Source of the DNA: an uncultured Chloroflexia bacterium
GTDB lineage: Bacteria; Chloroflexota; Anaerolineae; JAAYZQ01
Reading direction: 5' to 3'
DNA length: 64,000 nt
Assembly: GCA_963700285.1 (NCBI GenBank)
Contig: CAVOXA010000010.1
Location: 288,001 to 352,000 of the forward strand
Shown here: piece after piece, positions 1-15,391 of the stretch
How the letters are laid out: every line of letters begins with the position of its first letter
Position numbering within the stretch: the stretch's first letter is position 1
Program-made: the position numbers and the translations under genes
Notes under the pieces: model-generated
Told to the model about the DNA's origin: nothing
Seen by the model: only the letters and a program-made list of their open reading frames with translations
Databases searched by the model: none

Positions 1-961
1 CGGTGTCATCGGAATTGTCGGGGGGCTAGAGATCGTCCGCTGCCTCAATGAGCTAGGCATCCGCCTGCGACACCCGCTGGAGGTCGTAGATTTTCTGGCC
101 GAGGAGCCCACCGACTTTGGCGTGTCCACCGTGGGCAGTCGGGGGATGGTTGGCGCCCTGTCTCCAGAACTCTTGGCCAAGACGAATGAGCAAGGACGCC
201 CACTGTCCGAGGCGCTCGCCGAACTAGGGGGGCGCCCGGAGGAGGTTCCCGGTAAAGTGCGACATCGCGGCGACATCGCGGCCTATCTGGAAATGCACAT
301 CGAGCAGGGGCCAGTCCTGGATCAGGCGGGGATCCCCCTGGCTTCCGTGACCGGCATCGCCGGCATCCGGCGCTTTACCGTGACCATCGATGGCGAATCC
401 AACCACGCGGGCACTACGCCCATGGAGCTTCGCCGCGATGCGCTGGTGGCTGCGTCACGCTTTGTCATCGAGTCCGAGCTGGTATTCCGCTCAGAGGCGA
501 ACTCGGTGGGGACGATTGGCTATATACAGATCAGTCCCAACATGGCCAACGTTGTACCCGGGCAGGCAGAACTGATCGTAGAGATGCGGAGCATCGATCC
601 TCAGATCATTGACCGCATTGACGAGCGATTGCACCAGAAAGCGCAAGAGGTTGCTCAGGAACGGGGGATCTCTATCAGGATGAGCCCGCTGACGGATGCC
701 ACACCGGTGCAGGCCGATCCCAGGCTGATCGAAATCACCACGCAGGCCTGCCGCCAGACGGACCCACGGGCGCTCGTACTGCCCAGCGGCGCCGGCCACG
801 ATGCCACACAGATCGGCACCATCGCGCCCATCGGCATGATTTTTGTTCCGAGCCGCAACGGCATCAGCCACAATCCTGCAGAATGGACGGACATGGAGGA
901 TATCGCCCTGGGCGTCCAGGCCATGGCGCGGGCCCTGGTCCTCGCCGACGAGGCTTTCTAG
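1..961 (+). CDS. Zn-dependent M20 amidohydrolase (allantoate amidohydrolase / N-carbamoyl-L-amino-acid hydrolase family), 5' truncated by window edge
   Basis: Frame is open from position 2 (GVIGIVGGLE...FLAEEPTDFG). Motifs EE, YLEMHIEQG, NHAGTTPM, SGAGHDA, GISHNPAE. Confidence 0.9.
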   Translation, partial: GVIGIVGGLEIVRCLNELGIRLRHPLEVVDFLAEEPTDFGVSTVGSRGMVGALSPELLAKTNEQGRPLSEALAELGGRPEEVPGKVRHRGDIAAYLEMHIEQGPVLDQAGIPLASVTGIAGIRRFTVTIDGESNHAGTTPMELRRDALVAASRFVIESELVFRSEANSVGTIGYIQISPNMANVVPGQAELIVEMRSIDPQIIDRIDERLHQKAQEVAQERGISIRMSPLTDATPVQADPRLIEITTQACRQTDPRALVLPSGAGHDATQIGTIAPIGMIFVPSRNGISHNPAEWTDMEDIALGVQAMARALVLADEAF

Positions 962-986
962 AGCTGCGGAGCCCTGGCTTTGCATC

Positions 987-1038
987 CAGCCTTGCGAAGG
1001 CTCAACGAACGTGGTTCGCGCCTTCGCAAGGCTGTTTT
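987..1038. terminator. Hairpin between convergent genes (probable bidirectional terminator, REP-like arms)
   Basis: Perfect 15-bp inverted repeat CAGCCTTGCGAAGGC (987-1001) / GCCTTCGCAAGGCTG (1020-1034), inner CGAAC/GTTCG stem, followed by TTTT on the + strand. Confidence 0.7.
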
Positions 1039-2034
1039 CTATGGCAGGGTGATGGTCTCTTCTGTTTCGGCTGAACGGTAGATAGCCAGAACGACCTCCA
1101 AGGACTTTAGGCCGTCGTTGGCAGTTATGGCCGGTTCGCGGTCCTCCTGAATGGCCGCGACAAACTCCTCCGCCTGCCGGCAAAAGTTATAGTGCTGGCC
1201 TAGCCGGCTAGCAGAGGTCTGAGTTTCCAGCCGGGTCTGCAGGCTGTTGCTGCTCACCTCCACCGCTTCGCGGGTGACGCGCAGCATCCCCTCGGTGCCA
1301 AAGATCTCGGTCTCCCACACAGACGGTTGGGCCCAGTAGGCGGGCGCGTTGGCTGTGGATGTGGCTACGGCGCCGCTGGCAAAGGTCAGCAGGGCTACGG
1401 CTCCATCCTCTACCTCAGAGTCCGGATCCCAGCGACGAACCTGGGCCGTGACGGAGGTGACCTCACTGCCCACCAGCCAGCGCAGGCGATCTATGGCGTG
1501 GATGGCGGTGTACATCATCACCCCGCCGCCGGCAGCCTCTTTCTGGGCCACCCAGGCGGGCAGCTCCGGTTTGCGCGGGGCATTCATCACGCTGCGAACC
1601 ACCTGGGGGAGGCCCACGCGGCCCTCGTCCAGCCACTGCTTTGCGAACTGGGCCTCGTCGCGAAAGCGGTGAACAAAGCTCATGGTCAGTTTGACACCTG
1701 CTGCCTGGCATAACTCGACGATGCGCCGGCCATCGTCGATGGTAGTGGCGATGGGCTTTTCCATCAGCACGTGGACGCCCTGCTCGGTGGCGGCCTCTGT
1801 GGGTTCCACATGCATATTGTGCGGGAGCCCCACCACGAGGATATCCAGGTCAAGGTCCATCAGGCGCCGCCAATCGGCGACGGCAACTCCACCAAAGCGA
1901 TCCGCCAGCGCCCCGGCCCGTTCTACGACGATATCGGCTGTGCCGGCGATGGTGGCTCCCTCCGTCGCCGCAAAGGCAATTGCGTGGCGCTCGCCCACCT
2001 GGCCCGCGCCAATGATTCCTACGCGCAATGTCAT
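1039..2034 (-). CDS. Gfo/Idh/MocA family oxidoreductase
   Basis: GIIGAGQVG Rossmann motif, EKPIA, GGGVMMYTAIHAID. GGAGG RBS. Confidence 0.92.
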   Translation of the reverse strand: MTLRVGIIGAGQVGERHAIAFAATEGATIAGTADIVVERAGALADRFGGVAVADWRRLMDLDLDILVVGLPHNMHVEPTEAATEQGVHVLMEKPIATTIDDGRRIVELCQAAGVKLTMSFVHRFRDEAQFAKQWLDEGRVGLPQVVRSVMNAPRKPELPAWVAQKEAAGGGVMMYTAIHAIDRLRWLVGSEVTSVTAQVRRWDPDSEVEDGAVALLTFASGAVATSTANAPAYWAQPSVWETEIFGTEGMLRVTREAVEVSSNSLQTRLETQTSASRLGQHYNFCRQAEEFVAAIQEDREPAITANDGLKSLEVVLAIYRSAETEETITLP

Positions 2035-2080
2035 GATCTACCCTCCATGAAAACTCGACCCGTTGCAGGGTTCCAGGCCT

Positions 2081-2097
2081 CAGACCTCCGAGGTCTG
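2081..2097. repeat. REP-like palindrome CAGACCTC-C-GAGGTCTG
   Basis: Perfect 8-bp arms in an intergenic gap. A related unit occurs at 24702-24791. Confidence 0.55.
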
Positions 2098-2115
2098 GTT
2101 GTGCGATCCAGATGT

Positions 2116-3387
2116 TCAGGCGGCTGACGGCCTGAGTCTAACACCGAATTGCAGCACACCCAAGCTCAGGAAGAAAAGGAATGTGGCAGCGTAAAAGATA
2201 ACGACCAGCCCGAAGGCGTCGCCAATGGACGCCGCGGCGAGAGGCGCCACGGCCCCTACGAGGCTGCCGGGCAGGAAGAACAGAGCAAAGGCCAGCCCCC
2301 GTTGTTTTCCAGGCGACAGCTTGGCCATGATCGCGGCAGTGGCCGCCATACCCAGAAAAGTCAAGAAGCCATAGGTCAGGTACAGAACAACAAAGCCCAC
2401 ATTGTTGGGAATGAGGAAAGCCAAGGCATAGCACACGTAGGACAGCGACAGGATGAAGAGAAGCCACCTCTTCTCTCCGTACCGTACGGCAAAAAAGCCA
2501 CCCAACACGGCGCCGGCGATCCCCACCAGCGTGTTGAGCCCGATGAGCGTACTGGCCGTAGGTCCAGAGAACGCCCTGTCGTCGACCATGTACAGGGCCA
2601 TGAAAGACTGGCTCATCGAGGTGGCCATCGACTTTACGGCAATGTAAATCAGGAACATGATCATGCTGGGCGTGAGCAGCGAAGAGAACCCAGCCTTGGG
2701 TGTACCAGCGGCGGTGACTACCCCCACGTCATCTTTTGGCGCGGATCGGAGGAACAGCACAGATACGATACCCAGTAGAAGGGGCAAGGCCCAAAACAGG
2801 TACACCTGCCGCCAACCGAAGGCAAAGACCCCCATCAAGATGGTGATTGAAAGGGGGCCAAGGGCCACGCCCAAAGTCCCACCGGCTCCGTGAAAGCCCA
2901 ACGCCTTGAGCCTGGCCCTGGGTTCGAAAAGCCTGGTGACAAAACTATAGGCTGCGGGGTGGTACACCGTAGTGTTGATGTACACGAGGCTGACAGCGAC
3001 GATCAACACGACAGGGGTGAGGGCCTGACTGGCCAGAAGAGCACCCGCGGTGGCGATAGCGAGAGCAACTACGATCATCAGCCTGGAACCGAACCTATCA
3101 GACAGCAAACCCGTAGGGATAGACAGGAGCGCCTGGCAGAGAGCAGGAATGGCAGCGATGAGGCCCAGTTGCTGGAGCGATAGGCTGAATTCGACCTGAA
3201 GGACAGGGAATAGCGTCGTGTGGATGCGGGTAAACACGTGCGTGAGCATGTGCGTCATGGTCATGACGAGCAGCCCATAACTGAATATCGATCTGTTACC
3301 CGCTACGGCGTCGGCTGTCCTACCAACCCAACCACGCCCCGCCGTTGGGGCACTCCCTTGATCGTCGTCAACGACGCTCGGAGCCAT
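2116..3387 (-). CDS. MFS transporter
   Basis: ~12 hydrophobic segments and motif A GLLSDRFGSR. ATG at 3387 is well spaced from GGGAGGG. Confidence 0.9.
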   Translation of the reverse strand: MAPSVVDDDQGSAPTAGRGWVGRTADAVAGNRSIFSYGLLVMTMTHMLTHVFTRIHTTLFPVLQVEFSLSLQQLGLIAAIPALCQALLSIPTGLLSDRFGSRLMIVVALAIATAGALLASQALTPVVLIVAVSLVYINTTVYHPAAYSFVTRLFEPRARLKALGFHGAGGTLGVALGPLSITILMGVFAFGWRQVYLFWALPLLLGIVSVLFLRSAPKDDVGVVTAAGTPKAGFSSLLTPSMIMFLIYIAVKSMATSMSQSFMALYMVDDRAFSGPTASTLIGLNTLVGIAGAVLGGFFAVRYGEKRWLLFILSLSYVCYALAFLIPNNVGFVVLYLTYGFLTFLGMAATAAIMAKLSPGKQRGLAFALFFLPGSLVGAVAPLAAASIGDAFGLVVIFYAATFLFFLSLGVLQFGVRLRPSAA

Positions 3388-3466
3388 AGTCACCCTCCCT
3401 TAATCTGCCGCGTCCCAGGCCAACCCGGATGCCGGTCAGATTCGAGCACTGTTCTGTCGCCAGCAA

Positions 3467-4084
3467 TCAGTGCGGTCTTTTGATCTCCAACACATAGGGT
3501 CTGTGGGCTGCTGTGCTGTGGAATTCTTTCCAGAAACCCAGCGATTCCTCCGGGGTCAGCAGACGTGTCAGCTTCAAGTAGACGGGATCCGCGCCCGGAA
3601 AAACAAAGGTAGGCGCACCAAACACGTCCAGCCCTTCGGCCCGCGAATGGTCTTTGGCCAGGCGATGCAGACAGGTTGGATCGACGAGCGCCTGCTCAAA
3701 GGCGGCCATATCGAGGCCGACCTGCGCTGCTACCGCGCGCAGCATCTCGGGCTCGCCCAGCTTTTGGCCCCGCTGATGTCTTTCGCGCAGCAAGGCTAGA
3801 TGAAAGCGTCGGAAAGCCTCTTCGCCCTGGCGCCGCGCCGCCTCAGCAGCCCAGAAAGCGCGAAGAGCCATGGCATAGCTCGACTCTTCCCAATCCTCGC
3901 CGCTCAGAGGCTGTTCCCAGACCTTCCAGGTATCCCCATTCTCATGATTCACCTGGTGCAGCGAGAAGAAACACCAGTGGATATCGAGTTCACCCGGCAA
4001 CGCCTCGTCAACACTCAGGAGCCACTCCGTGGCCCGATAAACGTACGGTCACACATAATCATAGTAGACATCAAATTCAATCAT
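3467..4084 (-). CDS. DsbA/FrnE-like thioredoxin-fold selenoprotein (205 aa; Sec at codon 12)
   Basis: GGGAGGG RBS + ATG at 4084 reads MIEFDVYYDYV-TGA-PYVYRATEW, in frame with the 177-aa ORF. The TGA (4051-4049) sits at the D-x-x-C-P catalytic Cys. cis-Pro motif VFGAPTF near the C-terminus. Confidence 0.8.
4019..4035 (-). promoter_or_regulatory. Candidate bacterial SECIS hairpin
   Basis: GGGCCAC-GGA-GUGGCUC 7-bp stem (one G-U pair) with a G-initiated loop 20 nt after the UGA. Confidence 0.6.
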
Positions 4085-4169
4085 GCATCCCTCCCAATTC
4101 CAGATCCCTCAGTGACCCGATTTGCCCGCGTTGCGGGGCCCGGCCAGGTGAGAAGCCTTGGCGTCGTAC

Positions 4170-5547
4170 TCAAGACGTGCGGTCCGCAAACTCCTGGAAG
4201 ATCGTCGCCGCGAACTTGATGCCCTGCATGTAGCGGTCGACGGGCATGTTCTCATTGGGCGCGTGCAGGTTGTTGTCGGGAGCGCCAAAACCACTCAGCA
4301 CCGCCGGGTGCGGAATGTGGATCATGATGATGCCCTGGGTGCTGACACCGGCGACCATCGGCGGCTCGCCCCAGACGCGCTCGGCGGCGTGGATGATGGC
4401 CTGGCTGATGGCCTCGCGTACGGGCGTCTTGTACGGATTGGGACGCGCCGCGCGCACGACGATCTCGACGTCGTCAAAGCCGTGCTTTTCCAGGTGCGCT
4501 TCCAGCTTCTTGAGCTGATCCAGCGGCTCCAGGTTGGGCGGGCAGCGAAAGTCGAGCTTGGCCGAAGCCTGGGTGGGCACGATGGTCTTGCTGCCCTCGC
4601 CCGTGTAGCCGGCCACCAGGCCATTGATATTGCACGATGCGCCATAGTGGATGGCCTTCAACAACTCCAGGTCATCGTCGAAGGGAAAGTCGCGGGTCAG
4701 GCCAAACTGGCGGCGCAGTATCTTCACGGTCAAAGTGGGCTCAGTTCCTCGCGCAGGTAGTACATATCATCCTCATCAGGGGGCAGCAGGTCGTCGTACC
4801 AGCCTTCGATGAGGATGCGGCCATTCGGCGTCGAACATGCTGTTCGAGACAGTGTACCAGCCGCCAGGGCGCGCTTTTGGCCTGCATCAACTGGGCCCGC
4901 CCGCTCCAAAAGTCGATCTCGTGGGTCTTGACCCGCAGTTCGACGACCAGGATGGCCTTGATGCCCAGGTGGATCTCGGGCTTGTAGGAGGTGCGATGCA
5001 CGCCGCCATCCAGCCCAATGCTGGCGTCGCACTGGCACAGGTCCTGATTGTTCAGCACCCATTCTTCGAGGTGGGGGCTGCCCATCTCCTCTTCGCCCTC
5101 AAAGAGGTAGACCAGGTTCACCGGCAGAGCGCCACGGACCTCTTTGAAGGCCCGCGCTGGCCCGGACCAGGGCCAGCACGCCCGACTTGTCGTCCGTAGC
5201 GCCCCGGGCATAGATCACGCCGTCGCGGATGTTGGCCTCAAAGGGCGGCTCGATCCATTTCTCCAGGGGCTCTGGCGGCTGGACGTCATAGTGGCCGTAG
5301 CACAGCAGCGTACTGGCGTTGGGATCCGCCGGCTTTTTCGGTGGCGTACACCAGGTCCGGCCCGCCAGGAACCGGAATGCGGCGGACATTGGTCAATGCC
5401 GTTGTCCAGCATCTGCCGCTTCAGCAGCTCCGCGCATTCGTCCAGCCCGATGTTCTGGGCGCTGATGCTCGGTTGACGGAGCAATTCTTGAAGCTCCGCG
5501 ACCTCTTCGTCGCGATGCTCTTCGATCCAATCATAGATGTCCTGCAT
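4170..5547 (-). CDS. M20/M25/M40 metallo-hydrolase (dipeptidase-like), split by several apparent frameshifts
   Basis: Fragments carry [32 protein letters not shown] and LHAPNE. GGAGG RBS. Confidence 0.85.
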
Positions 5548-5559
5548 GGTTATCCTCCC

Positions 5560-6937
5560 TTATTGTTGGCCATAGTACCACATGATAGCGGCCGCGTACT
5601 TGATCCCTTTGATATAGTGCTCCAGATCAACGCTCTCGTTGGGCGCGTGCAGATTGCAGTCGGGTTGGGCAAAGCCGGTGAGCACAGTGGGCATCCACAC
5701 GTGCTTGAGGATGGTGCCCTCGGCGCTGACGCCGCTGACCACCGGCGCGTTGCCAAACACCAGTTCGGCGGCCTGTATGATCGCCTGGCTGATGTCCTCC
5801 TTGACGCTGATTTTGAAGGGTGGCTCGGGCGTACCGGTCAGGAAGATCAGCTCAATGTCGCCAAAGCCGCGATCGACCAGGTGCTTGCGCAGCCTCTCGA
5901 CCGCTTTGTCGGGGTCGATATGAGGGGGTAGGCGCAGGTCCAGCTTGGCCCGGGCCTCGTTGGGCACGATGGTCTTGCCGCCTTCACCCTGGTAGCCGCT
6001 GGTCAGCCCGGCAATGTTGCAGGTCGGCTCGTACGGACTTGGCCATGAGGGCCTCTACTCCCTCGCGGCCCAGAGCAAACTGGTCAATGCCCCAGCCCTC
6101 TTTCATCTTGTCCAGGTCCAGGCGGGCAGCATTGGCCTCTAGCAGCTCGATCTCTTCCTCGCCCAGTTCGATGACCTCGTCGTACCAACCATCGACAAGA
6201 ATGCGCCTGTTTCCATCCACCAGGCTGTTGAGGGCGCGGACCAGATCCCAGGCCGGCTGAGGCAGCAATGGAGCGTTCTTGCTGTGGATGTCGGCGTTGG
6301 CTCCCCGGGCGATAAGCTCGATGAACATCACGCTTTTGAGGCCCAAGCCCACCCGGGGTACTAGTTCGCTGGTATCCACGCCACCGTCGAGGCAGTGCAT
6401 GGCATCGGCCTGCACCAACTCGGGGTTGGCCTCGATATAGGGTCCCAGGTGGGGCGATCCGATCTCCTCTTCCCCCTCGGTGATAAACTTGACGCCCACG
6501 GGCGGCTCGCCCAGGGTCTGGCACCAGGCTTTTGCCGCCTTGACAAAGGCCAGTACGCCCGATTTGTTGTCCGTCGCCCCCCTGCCCCACAGGCGGCCAT
6601 CGGCCAACTGGGCACTGTAGGGCGGATAGGTCCAAGCATCCAGCGGTTCGGGCGGCTGAACGTCATAGTGGGCATAGGCCAGCAAAATCTTGGGCGAAAG
6701 ACTGCTGGGCACATGGCCAAAGACACAGGGAGGCCCGCCCGGAAGGGGATGCGCCTTGCCATCCAATCCGTCGGCGTGCATGATCTCTACCACCAAGCCA
6801 GCGCACTCCTCAAGCCCTATCTTCTGGGCGCTGACGCTGGGCTGCTGTACCAGTCGCTGGAGATCGGCCATCGCCTCATCACGGTGGGCGTCGATCCAGT
6901 CGAACGCTGCCTGGAGTCTCGAATCAAGCTTGGTCAC
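5560..6937 (-). CDS. M20 metallo-hydrolase (dipeptidase-like), one apparent frameshift near 6040
   Basis: YAHYDVQP, GATDNKSG, EGEEE, HCLDGG, LHAPNE. Confidence 0.88.
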
Positions 6938-6973
6938 AAGAGCTATCCTTTCTATCCCACGCAGGTCATCAGC

Positions 6974-8056
6974 CTACAGCCATACCTGCGGAATGCCGTG
7001 CTCCTGATAGAAGGCACGCATCTGTAGGCGCTGGCCGGTTCGGGCAGCCTCGATGCAAGCCCGGGTCAGGGCAAGTGTCTTGAGATGGTCTTTCCCACTG
7101 GTCTCCACGGACCGACCTGACAGCAACGCCTCGACGAACTCGGCCAGCAGGCCCCGGGTATCGTCAACAAAGTGCTCGACCGGCTCGAGTTTGACGGACA
7201 GCAGGGGCTCCGCTTCGTGCTTGAATCGTTCCCCGGTCATTGCCAACTCTGGCGAAAACCTGACTACATAAAGGTCATCGAACTGGGCCTTCTGGATCAG
7301 GACGCCGCCCGAGCAATCGGTACGCCAGCGGAAGTTGAACTCGTTCCAGGCCGCGGTCCAGGTGCCCAGGTAGTTGACACGCAAGCCGCCCTCAAAACAG
7401 AGCAGGGCCGAGACGTTGCTGTCATCCTGGTAGACACTCCAGGGCGGGTTCCAGGTATCAGCCTGGACCCAGACCACCTCACGATCGTAGCAGTAGCGCA
7501 TCAGATCCAGGTGGTGGATCGATTGCTCGAGCAGCATGGGCTGCTCCTGGGTCAGGCAATGGTCATTCAGATCGGCCCGCCTGCCGTCACGATGGCGAAG
7601 GTAGGTGAACTGGGCAAAGGAGGGTTCGCCCAACAGTCGCTGGCGGATCGCGCGCTTGATCGCCTGGTGAGCAGGCAGGTAGCGAAAATTCATGCCTACC
7701 ATCAACTGCAGGCCACGCCTCTCCGCCTCACCGACGAGGTCAAGCGCCTCGGCCAGGTCCTCGGCCAGCGGTTTCTCGGCGAGCACGTGCATGCCCCGGC
7801 GAAAAGCCAGCATGATCTGTTCGTGGTGGACCTCTGGCGGCGTGGCCAACACCATGGCATCTGGCGCTGTCGCGTCAAGAGCGACAGGCAGGCTGGTGAA
7901 ACAGGGAACCCCCTGAGGGTCAAAAAGGCCCTCCGTGTTGAGGTCTGGAAAACGGCGGTCGACGTAGGCGACAGTCTCCGCATCCGCTTCTTCGCGGATG
8001 ACCCGGGCCCATTGCCTGCCTCTGACGCCGACGCCTACCAGGACTATCCTGATCAC
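6974..8056 (-). CDS. Gfo/Idh/MocA family oxidoreductase
   Basis: GTG start after AAGGAG. LVGVGVRG, EKPLA, EQSIHHLD. Confidence 0.88.
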   Translation of the reverse strand: MIRIVLVGVGVRGRQWARVIREEADAETVAYVDRRFPDLNTEGLFDPQGVPCFTSLPVALDATAPDAMVLATPPEVHHEQIMLAFRRGMHVLAEKPLAEDLAEALDLVGEAERRGLQLMVGMNFRYLPAHQAIKRAIRQRLLGEPSFAQFTYLRHRDGRRADLNDHCLTQEQPMLLEQSIHHLDLMRYCYDREVVWVQADTWNPPWSVYQDDSNVSALLCFEGGLRVNYLGTWTAAWNEFNFRWRTDCSGGVLIQKAQFDDLYVVRFSPELAMTGERFKHEAEPLLSVKLEPVEHFVDDTRGLLAEFVEALLSGRSVETSGKDHLKTLALTRACIEAARTGQRLQMRAFYQEHGIPQVWL

Positions 8057-13570: not shown

Positions 13571-14452
13571 TCAGCGATAGGCGCCCAGGCCCATCAAACG
13601 GGCCACATTGGCCTGAGGGGCATGGACGGGCAGGATCTCGCTGCCGGAACCCGTCATGAACATTGTCATCCCTGGGCCAAAGCCGGTACGTACGCTGTCG
13701 CCATGTCCAACGATGCCGACGCTCATGGCACCCCGCCAGTAGCCCGGAGCATAGAGACACTCATAGTCTTCCACGGCAATGATGTCGCCCAGCCTGAGAT
13801 CCTGCAGAGCATATTTCTCCACCACACCGGGCGAGCCGGTCTGGATTTGAAGACAGCCACCGTCACTATCCAGCCCAGTGCCAGCACCCATAAGCTCAGC
13901 CGGGAGGGTGGCCACAACCGGTACCTGGAGCTGGCCACCCGACTCGGTGATGCCGATCATTTCCAGGAGAGCAGGATCTATGTTCTTCACCTCGATACCG
14001 GCAAAGCCCTCGATGGCCGCGCCGCGGCCAAATGCTTTGACCACGATGGGATCTCCAACAGCAAGGTCGTCCAGCGCCTCGGGCGGAAAGTCAATGATGA
14101 CGTGGTCCATAAAGCGCCCGCTCTTGCCGGTAACGGTGCCCTTGGCCCCTTTGGCCCGGCCAGACATGACCACAGCTTCATTGCCAACGGAGGCGTAGAC
14201 CTTGAGCGCCCTGTGGGCGGCGGCGTCCTGGGCTCGAATACTCACCCCGGGCTCGATCAGTTCCGCGGCCCAACCGAGCGCCGGGTCACCACTGCGCACA
14301 TTGTACACAATGCCACCGTTTAGCGGCAGCAGCGAAGGCTTACCTTCGCGCGAGATAAAGTGGGGGTTCCAGGGAACAGAGGGGAATCGCGGCGCGTCAA
14401 CCTGACCCATGACCGAGATCCGGACCAACCTTTTTTTGTTTGTGGTTATCAT
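13571..14452 (-). CDS. DUF4438 (TM1086-like) family protein
   Basis: TNKKRLV, GGIVYNVRSGD, EPGVS, GNEA, LRLGD, HGD...GPG pattern. Confidence 0.8.
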   Translation of the reverse strand: MITTNKKRLVRISVMGQVDAPRFPSVPWNPHFISREGKPSLLPLNGGIVYNVRSGDPALGWAAELIEPGVSIRAQDAAAHRALKVYASVGNEAVVMSGRAKGAKGTVTGKSGRFMDHVIIDFPPEALDDLAVGDPIVVKAFGRGAAIEGFAGIEVKNIDPALLEMIGITESGGQLQVPVVATLPAELMGAGTGLDSDGGCLQIQTGSPGVVEKYALQDLRLGDIIAVEDYECLYAPGYWRGAMSVGIVGHGDSVRTGFGPGMTMFMTGSGSEILPVHAPQANVARLMGLGAYR

Positions 14453-14465
14453 TTGATGCTCTCCT

Positions 14466-15391
14466 CTATGCCCATCGACCAAAGTTCAGATAGTTGGCGA
14501 TATTTGCGTCCGAGTCAATACGGGGTACGATATGCGGGGTCGGGCAGGATAGCAGCGTCATGACCCCGGGACCGTGCCCCGTCATGAAACAATCGCCATG
14601 GTTGATCAAGCCGATGACAACAGCCCCCTCTTGATAGCCGCGCCCGTAGGTGTGATCTTGATCCTGGATCGCTACCAAGTCACCGAGGCGCAGATCCGTC
14701 AGTCCAAGCTCGCGCATCAGGGCCCGATCCTCGGTGGCCATATCCTGGTCCACGAACTCTGGGAACAGCTCCATGCCCGAACCCATGATCTGGGGCGGGA
14801 ACATGTGCGTCACCGGCACGCTCAGCTTGCCATCACCCGTGGGTTCCAGGGGCAGGGACTCGATCAACTGCGGGCTGCACTTTCGCACGCTGATGTGGGG
14901 GTAGTCAAGCAACTCCAACCCGAGGCCGTAGGTTTTGATGAGAATCCTGTCGCCGACACACATATAGTCCAGGTGTTCGGGCTCAAAATCGATGAGCAAG
15001 CGGGCATGCTCTCCTGAAACCATGCCAGTGGCTCCCGCCGCTTCACCAGAGACGACGACAGCCTGGTTGCCCACACAGGTCAAATAGTGCATGGCATAGT
15101 CTTGCTGCTCGTCCGGGTTGTGGATCGACACCCCCGGCTCTAGATGGTCGGCTTCCCAGCCAAAGGCTGGATCGCCAACGCGCACGTTGTAGGCAATCCC
15201 GGCCATGCCGATGGGGATAGTGGAACGGCCAGAGTTGTCCGGTCGATAGCCCGGTCCCAGCTTTGGCGGAGAATCTCTCCCAGTACGGCCATTTCTACCA
15301 GATGGTCTCTATTGGTTTGAATCACTTGGACCTCCGTCACGGGCTCCACCTTTGCGGCGATGGTGGAGGACGCCGTATCGTCGTTCATCAC
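14466..15391 (-). CDS. DUF4438 (TM1086-like) family protein, apparent frameshift near 15272
   Basis: TNRDHLV, GIAYNVRVGD, DHLEPGVS, CVGN, LRLGD, HGDC...GHGPG. One missing T in ATT(T)CT joins the two frames. Confidence 0.8.

Follow-up and report, generated by a model that had tools for sequence, protein, structure and literature searches.

A DsbA-fold protein of the UxxV type with a predicted selenocysteine at its reactive position in an uncultured Chloroflexia bacterium

Proteins of the DsbA fold with a single reactive residue have been described both as selenoproteins and as cysteine proteins. The GOS selenoproteome survey (PLoS Genet 2008) lists a family named "DsbA 3 (UxxV)", assigned to pfam01323 and represented by five sequences in supplementary file 3 (PMC2398784), and a 2026 review lists a "DsbA-like protein form 2" with PF01323, a DxxUP motif and MDP6049977.1 as representative (PMC13188914). 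Among cysteine proteins, DR2335 of Deinococcus radiodurans has a solved structure (PDB 7DK9; C24S mutant, 7DKA) and a single conserved Cys in a D-x-x-C-P motif; a 2022 review presents DR_2335 as a predicted cytoplasmic DsbA-like protein, with no experimental data and no function reported (PMC8945050). Rv2466c, or mycoredoxin-2 (4NXI, 4ZIL, 5XUR), depends on mycothiol and has a second Cys (C22; 5XUR is the C22S mutant). It is described as a monothiol reductase of S-mycothiolated proteins that can also reduce nitro compounds in a mycothiol-dependent manner (PMC6178380). DsbA-like form 1 and FrnE, with UxxC and CxxC motifs, carry a resolving Cys at the third residue past the U or C.

The gene described here is located on the minus strand of the window, as we call the whole 64,000-nucleotide stretch that was analysed (contig CAVOXA010000010.1, positions 288,001 to 352,000). 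Its full coding sequence (3467..4084) runs from an ATG at 4084-4082 to a TGA stop at 3469-3467, and would code for a DR2335-like single-Cys/Sec DsbA-fold protein of 205 aa, counting U12. The Shine-Dalgarno-like sequence GGGAGGG (4089..4095, minus strand) lies 4 nt 5' of the ATG, and a purine-rich stretch and a start are present at the matching place in relatives of the gene. The N-terminus reads MIEFDVYYDYV-TGA-PYVYRATEWL, so that codon 12 (4049..4051, minus strand) is an in-frame TGA within D9-Y-V-U12-P13-Y-V; past it there is no indel and no further stop along the 205 codons. The original prediction, made from the sequence alone, had proposed that a frame opened by this ribosome-binding site and ATG runs through a TGA at the cysteine of a D-x-x-C-P motif into a 177-aa ORF, which can be read directly in the sequence. 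It had also anticipated that standard annotation would truncate the protein. A plain ORF finder does give only the TTG-started 177-aa part (4000-3467), and the protein database entry is this same 177-aa stub (P0002), devoid of its only catalytic residue.

In order to verify the TGA, the relatives and the sequencing data were inspected. Relatives at 92%, 61% and 60% identity have a TGA identical to that of the window gene, which excludes a sequencing error. In addition, short contigs from three of four independent runs cover 4049-4051 and list no other letter (at low depth, and as contigs, not raw reads), the fourth run giving no cover there. The sequencing runs listed included no RNA run. Three strong orthologues were found among 60 relatives, and each has one in-frame TGA, at the codon of the window gene.

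The codon was then compared across 94 loci: the window gene, the three strong orthologues, 10 further genome loci (three duplicates and 11 distant matches being left out) and the best 80 of 369 metagenome loci. Whether homologues have Cys or TGA at codon 12 was a check proposed with the original prediction: the D-x-x-C-P column is TGA in 55 of the 94 and TGC or TGT in 39, and no other codon, TAA and TAG included, occurs there. A quick tree needs nine U/C changes, at least four of them forced by strong branches. The close homologues fall in Chloroflexota (Anaerolineae, Dehalococcoidia, Chloroflexia and Ardenticatenia). Ten positions are invariant in all 94 loci: D9, C/U12, P13, L42, Q44, W56, F155, G156, P158 and T159. 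Four of these lie in an F-G-x-P-T-F loop (residues 155-160; 3605..3622, minus strand), which we take to be the cis-proline loop of the thioredoxin fold. W37, N46, W53, H103 and a C-terminal E-x-K-R-P motif (residues 200-204; 3473..3487, minus strand) are conserved in the family as well; the latter is a family signature partly common to DR2335 (I-R-R-P). Position 15, where a resolving Cys would stand, is V, C, A or T, with V in the window protein and C in only 5/94 loci; UPYV or UPFV is found in 47 of the 55 TGA loci. No Cys besides column 12 is conserved family-wide. C38 and C138 were considered as resolving residues and rejected, as neither is kept across the 94 loci, C138 being confined to the subclade of the window gene (5/5 there). 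The single reactive residue without a resolving Cys proposed originally was thus borne out, and it distinguishes the window protein from form 1 and FrnE.

A SECIS-like apical hairpin, GGGCCAC-GGA-GUGGCUC, is located at 4019..4035 on the minus strand (loop 4028-4026), that is, at +14 to +30 from the TGA, with the loop starting at +21. Its 7-bp stem begins 13 nt 3' of the TGA and was formed in all three folds tried. Compared with shuffled sequences, the three folds had z-scores of +1.09, -0.57 and +0.90, so that the hairpin is no more stable than shuffled sequences. Among the 195,646 TGA trinucleotides of the genome, 5,181 (2.6%) are followed by a comparable hairpin (stem of at least 7 bp, G in the first two loop bases, similar distance from the TGA), 627 (0.3%) at this exact offset. 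Given this background and these z-scores, the hairpin alone proves little, and it is the comparison across loci, rather than its own stability, that establishes it. Under a simple rule of our own, rather than a trained bSECIS model (stem of at least 5 bp, loop from +21, G at +21 or +22), a hairpin was present in 51 of 55 TGA forms and in six of the 36 distinct Cys forms. A second set comprised 30 loci drawn from a 401-genome phylum sample in which 44 genomes had a match; here the hairpin was present in 5/7 TGA forms (window gene included) and in 0/23 Cys forms. Four of the 55 TGA loci of the first set and two of the seven of the second lack it, and since kin are not independent, these figures and those on codons below are counts rather than a test. 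The SECIS-like element predicted 13 nt after the TGA is in this way upheld by its fixed offset in the TGA forms. An Rfam scan of positions 1-26000 of the window gave no match.

Further comparison of the hairpins revealed two stem registers around one fixed base. The G at +22 is invariant in the 55 TGA forms. In the subclade of the window gene the loop is 3 nt long, and C stands at +18 and CTC at +28-30 (5/5), whereas 46 other TGA forms have a 6-nt loop, 42 of them with A or G at +18 together with CTG (the commoner codon) or CTA, and four with TTG. The stem register has slipped between the window gene and Dehalococcoidia-type loci around the invariant +22 G, and the slip goes with matching synonymous and amino-acid changes. 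Since codon usage at +18 and +28-30 splits by stem register, synonymous choice in these aligned sequences tracks the stem. Four Cys forms keep the 6-nt-loop stem; they sit within a TGA-rich clade on the quick tree, which would fit recent changes from Sec to Cys.

Profile and structure comparisons were used to place the predicted protein among the DsbA-fold families. It matched PF01323 (DSBA) with an E value of 7.5e-17, and PF22234 (Rv2466c-like) with an E value of 6.5e-6 and 26.9 bits against a cut-off of 27, a gathering score that some of its homologues pass. No NCBIfam model was over its cut-off for any of seven proteins, the best being NF041057 (26.3 against 190 bits). In a sequence search of solved structures the best match was 7DK9 (E 2.7e-23, full length; 31-32% identity), followed by FrnE (partial) and Rv2466c (full length, E 0.002; about 21% identity), with HCCA isomerase (2IMD) at E 0.53. 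An AlphaFold model, built with Cys in place of Sec and one spurious terminal residue, had a pLDDT of 94.5 and a pTM of 0.90. Foldseek searches with it gave DR2335 first (TM 0.89-0.90) and Rv2466c second (0.70-0.74), and comparison with 2IMD, with GST-kappa (1R4W) and with FrnE gave 0.63, 0.63 and about 0.62. In the predicted structure strand 1 starts at residue 2 and there is no signal peptide. U12 aligns with C24 of DR2335, which is replaced by Ser in 7DKA. DR2335 is thus the closest relative of solved structure, differing in that its own residue is Cys rather than Sec.

The window gene is a member, by indirect sequence comparison, of the "DsbA 3 (UxxV)" family published in 2008, and the novelty implied by the original prediction was overstated. 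The GOS sequences share by eye U-x-x-V after D-x-x and the motifs W-x-x-F-x-L-x-Q-x-N, W-x-x-W-E, F-G-x-P-T-F and K-R-P (PMC2398784). One of them has, also by eye, a 20-residue identity around U (KIDVFIDYTUPWVRQAGIWL) with locus L155, which scores E 5.7e-57 on the family profile. The link to the window protein runs from such by-eye matches to L155 and L154 and then through the scores of these loci against it (35% identity and E 3e-37 for L155; 37% and E 4e-43 for L154). The published sequences form a different, marine-type branch; the window gene belongs to a sediment Anaerolineae-like subclade and differs in a 7-residue insertion (64-70), a 3-nt instead of a 6-nt SECIS loop and a catabolic neighbourhood. 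Form 2 shares the domain and the motif of the window protein (PF01323 and DxxUP) and may be the same family. MDP6049977.1 did not occur in the cluster memberships listed for 10 homologues, and the crotonase fusion that would tie the family to form 2 was absent from 10 proteins scanned, multi-repeat matches of 600-1200 aa lying outside that set. The word "crotonase" does not occur in the main text and five supplements of the source paper cited for form 2 (PMC5029168), nor "DsbA" in the main text and part of one supplement of the BSepDB paper (PMC13326102). In a search that is weak on subscription journals, no publication was found to connect the Sec family with DR2335 or with CoA.

The locus reveals no new decoding mechanism and no new selenoprotein family, and its importance is mainly for annotation, as the family lacks an NCBIfam model. 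Coverage of the query is at most 93% in 68 of the 86 homologue clusters (some of the short ones may be contig fragments), and the 18 near-full-length ones are all Cys forms. The family is common in Chloroflexota. It has switched repeatedly between Cys and Sec and has two stem registers about a single invariant G, which makes it well suited to studies of how SECIS elements evolve within coding sequence. In addition, a selenoprotein entry of a 2008 metagenomic survey is now linked to a solved and uncharacterised structure, DR2335.

By analogy with its relatives, the protein is probably a cytoplasmic mono-selenol reductase of mixed disulfides whose recycling depends on a small thiol. SelB, carrying Sec-tRNA, would attach to the hairpin that begins 13 nt past the UGA, and residue 12 would thereby become Sec. 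In the predicted structure, whose fold is of the DR2335/Rv2466c type, U12 of the D-x-x-U-P motif immediately precedes helix 1. As judged from Rv2466c, the nearest characterised relative and the best model for the mechanism, the selenolate probably attacks a protein or small-molecule disulfide, passing to a selenenyl-sulfide with the small thiol, and a second molecule of that thiol would free the enzyme; no resolving Cys would be needed, since this second molecule releases it. The mechanism is an analogy, because the two proteins share only about 21% identity and Rv2466c contains a second Cys. Neither that Cys nor a mycothiol supply was found for the window protein, mshC being below the cut-off in all five genomes tested (the genome of the window being 89% complete). 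In these five genomes bshC gave no match, and gshB gave no match in four of them, this genome included, and was below the cut-off in the fifth. The Cys at 138 in the subclade of the window gene may be a further point against the mechanism.

The small thiol could be CoA, a tentative and rather unlikely assignment that draws on three observations: the lack of small-thiol ligases over the cut-off, matches resembling CoA-disulfide reductase in 4/5 genomes (below the cut-off, up to 496 against 579 bits) and a link to coaE. This last gene, coding for dephospho-CoA kinase, is directly upstream of the family gene in all 15 loci of one well-supported clade and in L140 (the loci with coaE upstream being L089, L094, L104, L105, L107, L108, L109, L112, L114, L117, L120, L121, L124, L126, L131 and L140). 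Among database proteins, coaE is upstream of or fused to the family gene for P0105, P0113, P0138 and P0203; a full HMMER search gave CoaE-DsbA fusions in three 50%-identity clusters (P0105, P0113 and P0138), although a word-index search for longer fused forms had given none among 8000 candidates. Against CoA, the link is confined to one clade and may reflect a housekeeping gene order (ABC-F, coaE, dsbA, nth), coaE and dsbA are in frame in only 1/15 loci, and in the genome of the window coaE lies 1.2 Mb away. De-CoAlation in Bacillus is carried out by two-Cys thioredoxins (PMC10136147). The bolder proposal of a dedicated coenzyme A redoxin, a selenoenzyme stripping CoA from CoAlated proteins in Chloroflexota, is improbable; pointers to it are the coaE adjacency in 15/15 loci of one clade, the three fusion clusters, the mycoredoxin-2-like fold and the lack of canonical ligases in five genomes. 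If true, Chloroflexota without glutathione, bacillithiol or mycothiol would have in it a CoA equivalent of glutaredoxin, mycoredoxin and bacilliredoxin, and DR2335 would gain a testable role. A DinB/mycothiol-S-transferase-like gene lies near the family gene in four loci (L061, L068, L100 and L125), a neighbour that may hint at another small thiol.

The best surviving alternative to the mono-selenol reductase is a one-Sec peroxidase or small-molecule reductase, acting on a hydroperoxide, nitro or sulfoxide substrate and regenerated by either a small thiol or a thioredoxin partner. A single residue with repeated Cys/Sec exchange would fit a nucleophile prone to over-oxidation, the conservation of W37, Q44, N46, W53, W56, H103 and E-x-K-R-P speaks for a defined pocket, and the nitroreductase activity cited above for Rv2466c points the same way. 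This reading is nevertheless unlikely: neither a Prx (T-x-x-C) nor a GPx motif is present, and the closest folds are disulfide oxidoreductases.

The original prediction had suggested, from the position of the gene in a hydrolytic operon, that the protein catalyses a step of that pathway, by isomerisation or thiol transfer, as HCCA isomerase and GST-kappa do. These enzymes share with the window protein a DsbA-like fold with a helical insertion and the lack of a resolving Cys, and use Ser- and glutathione-based catalysis at the active-site position. The neighbourhood gives this reading some weight. The gene sits between two M20 dipeptidase-like genes, the nearer of them (4170..5547, minus strand) in pieces here and intact (456 aa) in L034, and an MFS transporter gene (2116..3393, minus strand) followed by a gene for a Gfo/Idh/MocA oxidoreductase (1039..2034, minus strand), the last on this strand before a convergent carbamoylase gene. 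The surrounding minus-strand run also codes for aminotransferases, an AstE/AspA-type hydrolase, a glyoxalase-fold protein and an NAD-dependent epimerase, and genes for amidohydrolases and peptidases are frequent in the region. The peptidase-dsbA-MFS order and its close same-strand neighbours are kept in the four other subclade loci (L034, L035, L036 and L058; 59-92% identity), and in this lineage dsbA is probably co-transcribed with the peptidase and transporter genes; some homologues are, in addition, auto-named "2-hydroxychromene-2-carboxylate isomerase". However, among the 93 loci compared, the remaining 89 (many of them short contigs) did not show that order, and their recurring neighbours are coaE, DUF362, dprA, nth, ABC-F, CAAX protease, DinB, a kinase and others. 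The fold is also nearer to DR2335 and Rv2466c (TM 0.90 to DR2335 against 0.63 to the two enzymes; E 2.7e-23 against 0.53 for HCCA isomerase and no sequence match for GST-kappa), the active column is C or U in 94/94 loci and never Ser, and the genome has no gshB match. A pathway step is for these reasons an improbable, weaker rival to the mono-selenol reductase, and thiol upkeep is the more likely role of the protein.

Several other features of the region were recorded. A promoter and terminator scan of 900-7200 gave nothing informative inside the operon. The second M20 peptidase gene (5560-6937, minus strand) is frameshifted here, and both M20 genes are whole in L034. A tandem pair of DUF4438 genes (13571-15206, minus strand) lies upstream of two class I/II aminotransferase genes in the same minus-strand run. 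The window opens, on the plus strand, with an ORF (122-961) that forms the 3' part of the gene for a 415-aa carbamoylase, which passed the cut-off of the NCBIfam model ErtE (539.8 against 520). It follows a hydantoinase gene (best model ErtD, 511.9 against 650) and a hydantoin racemase gene; this unit (L168:11472-14962) converges on the dsbA operon, and the carbamoylase gene does so in L034-L036 as well. A link to ergothioneine was considered and rejected, since the hydantoinase scored under the cut-off for ErtD and the 11 ORFs scanned gave no further Ert model at E 1e-40.

Insertion of Sec would require a selenium machinery, and a search for selA, selB, selD and tRNA-Sec had been called for on the basis of the sequence. 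In the genome of the window (G000, 89% complete) selA, selB and selD were over the cut-off and tRNA-Sec was found, selD carrying its own in-frame TGA. Both selB (G000:C10:2126954-2128870) and selD (G000:C9:56688-57628) are split by frameshifts in the assembly. These breaks are probably assembly errors, because the nearby M20 peptidase genes are broken too and whole in L034, and because selB is intact in three of three relatives (G001, G005 and G013); split ORFs in this genome should probably be distrusted for the same reason. An intact selD with its own TGA was found in G005 and G013, and none in G001 (90% complete). Among the other genomes with a TGA form, selB was present in 9/9 and selA in 8/9. 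The survey covered 36 genomes (the three relatives, 29 with fetched loci and four of 14 weaker matches); the five with neither selA nor selB over the cut-off all use Cys. Many Cys-form genomes carry the machinery as well, so Sec use in this DsbA family is specific to lineages.

Taken with the 55 TGA, 39 Cys and no other codons in the column and with the fixed-offset hairpin, the sel genes of the genome itself and the match between missing sel genes and Cys use across genomes indicate that codon 12 of the window gene is very likely read as selenocysteine, and the recoding originally predicted is well supported on these comparative grounds. That the TGA is instead a nonsense mutation, a sequencing error, or Trp or Cys under a variant code would find an opening in the many frameshifts of the assembly, selB and selD among them, but is effectively refuted and very improbable, since TGA occupies this one column in 55 loci of many lineages where TAA and TAG never occur, independent contigs agree on it, it pairs with Cys and not with Trp, TGA ends ordinary genes here (such as this gene at 3469-3467, where its homologues end too) and tRNA-Sec is encoded in the genome.

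Other TGA codons of the genome, outside the window, resemble Sec sites. Two of them (G000:C1:68252 and C1:1379605, both plus strand) lie in A-R-L/I-TGA-H-S-A-T-V, presumably the Sec site of a formate dehydrogenase, and are followed by strong hairpins, which suggests further use of Sec. In-frame TGA-Pro sites that are followed by a hairpin and flanked by protein-like sequence occur at G000:C6:88864 (plus strand), C5:212004 (minus), C14:759067 (plus) and C1:794778 (minus); these four may be further selenoproteins or chance. Finally, a second DsbA-like selenoprotein candidate was detected at G000:C10:238873 (plus strand), with the UxxC motif E-F-S-D-Y-Q-TGA-P-A-C, a hairpin and long open frames on either side.
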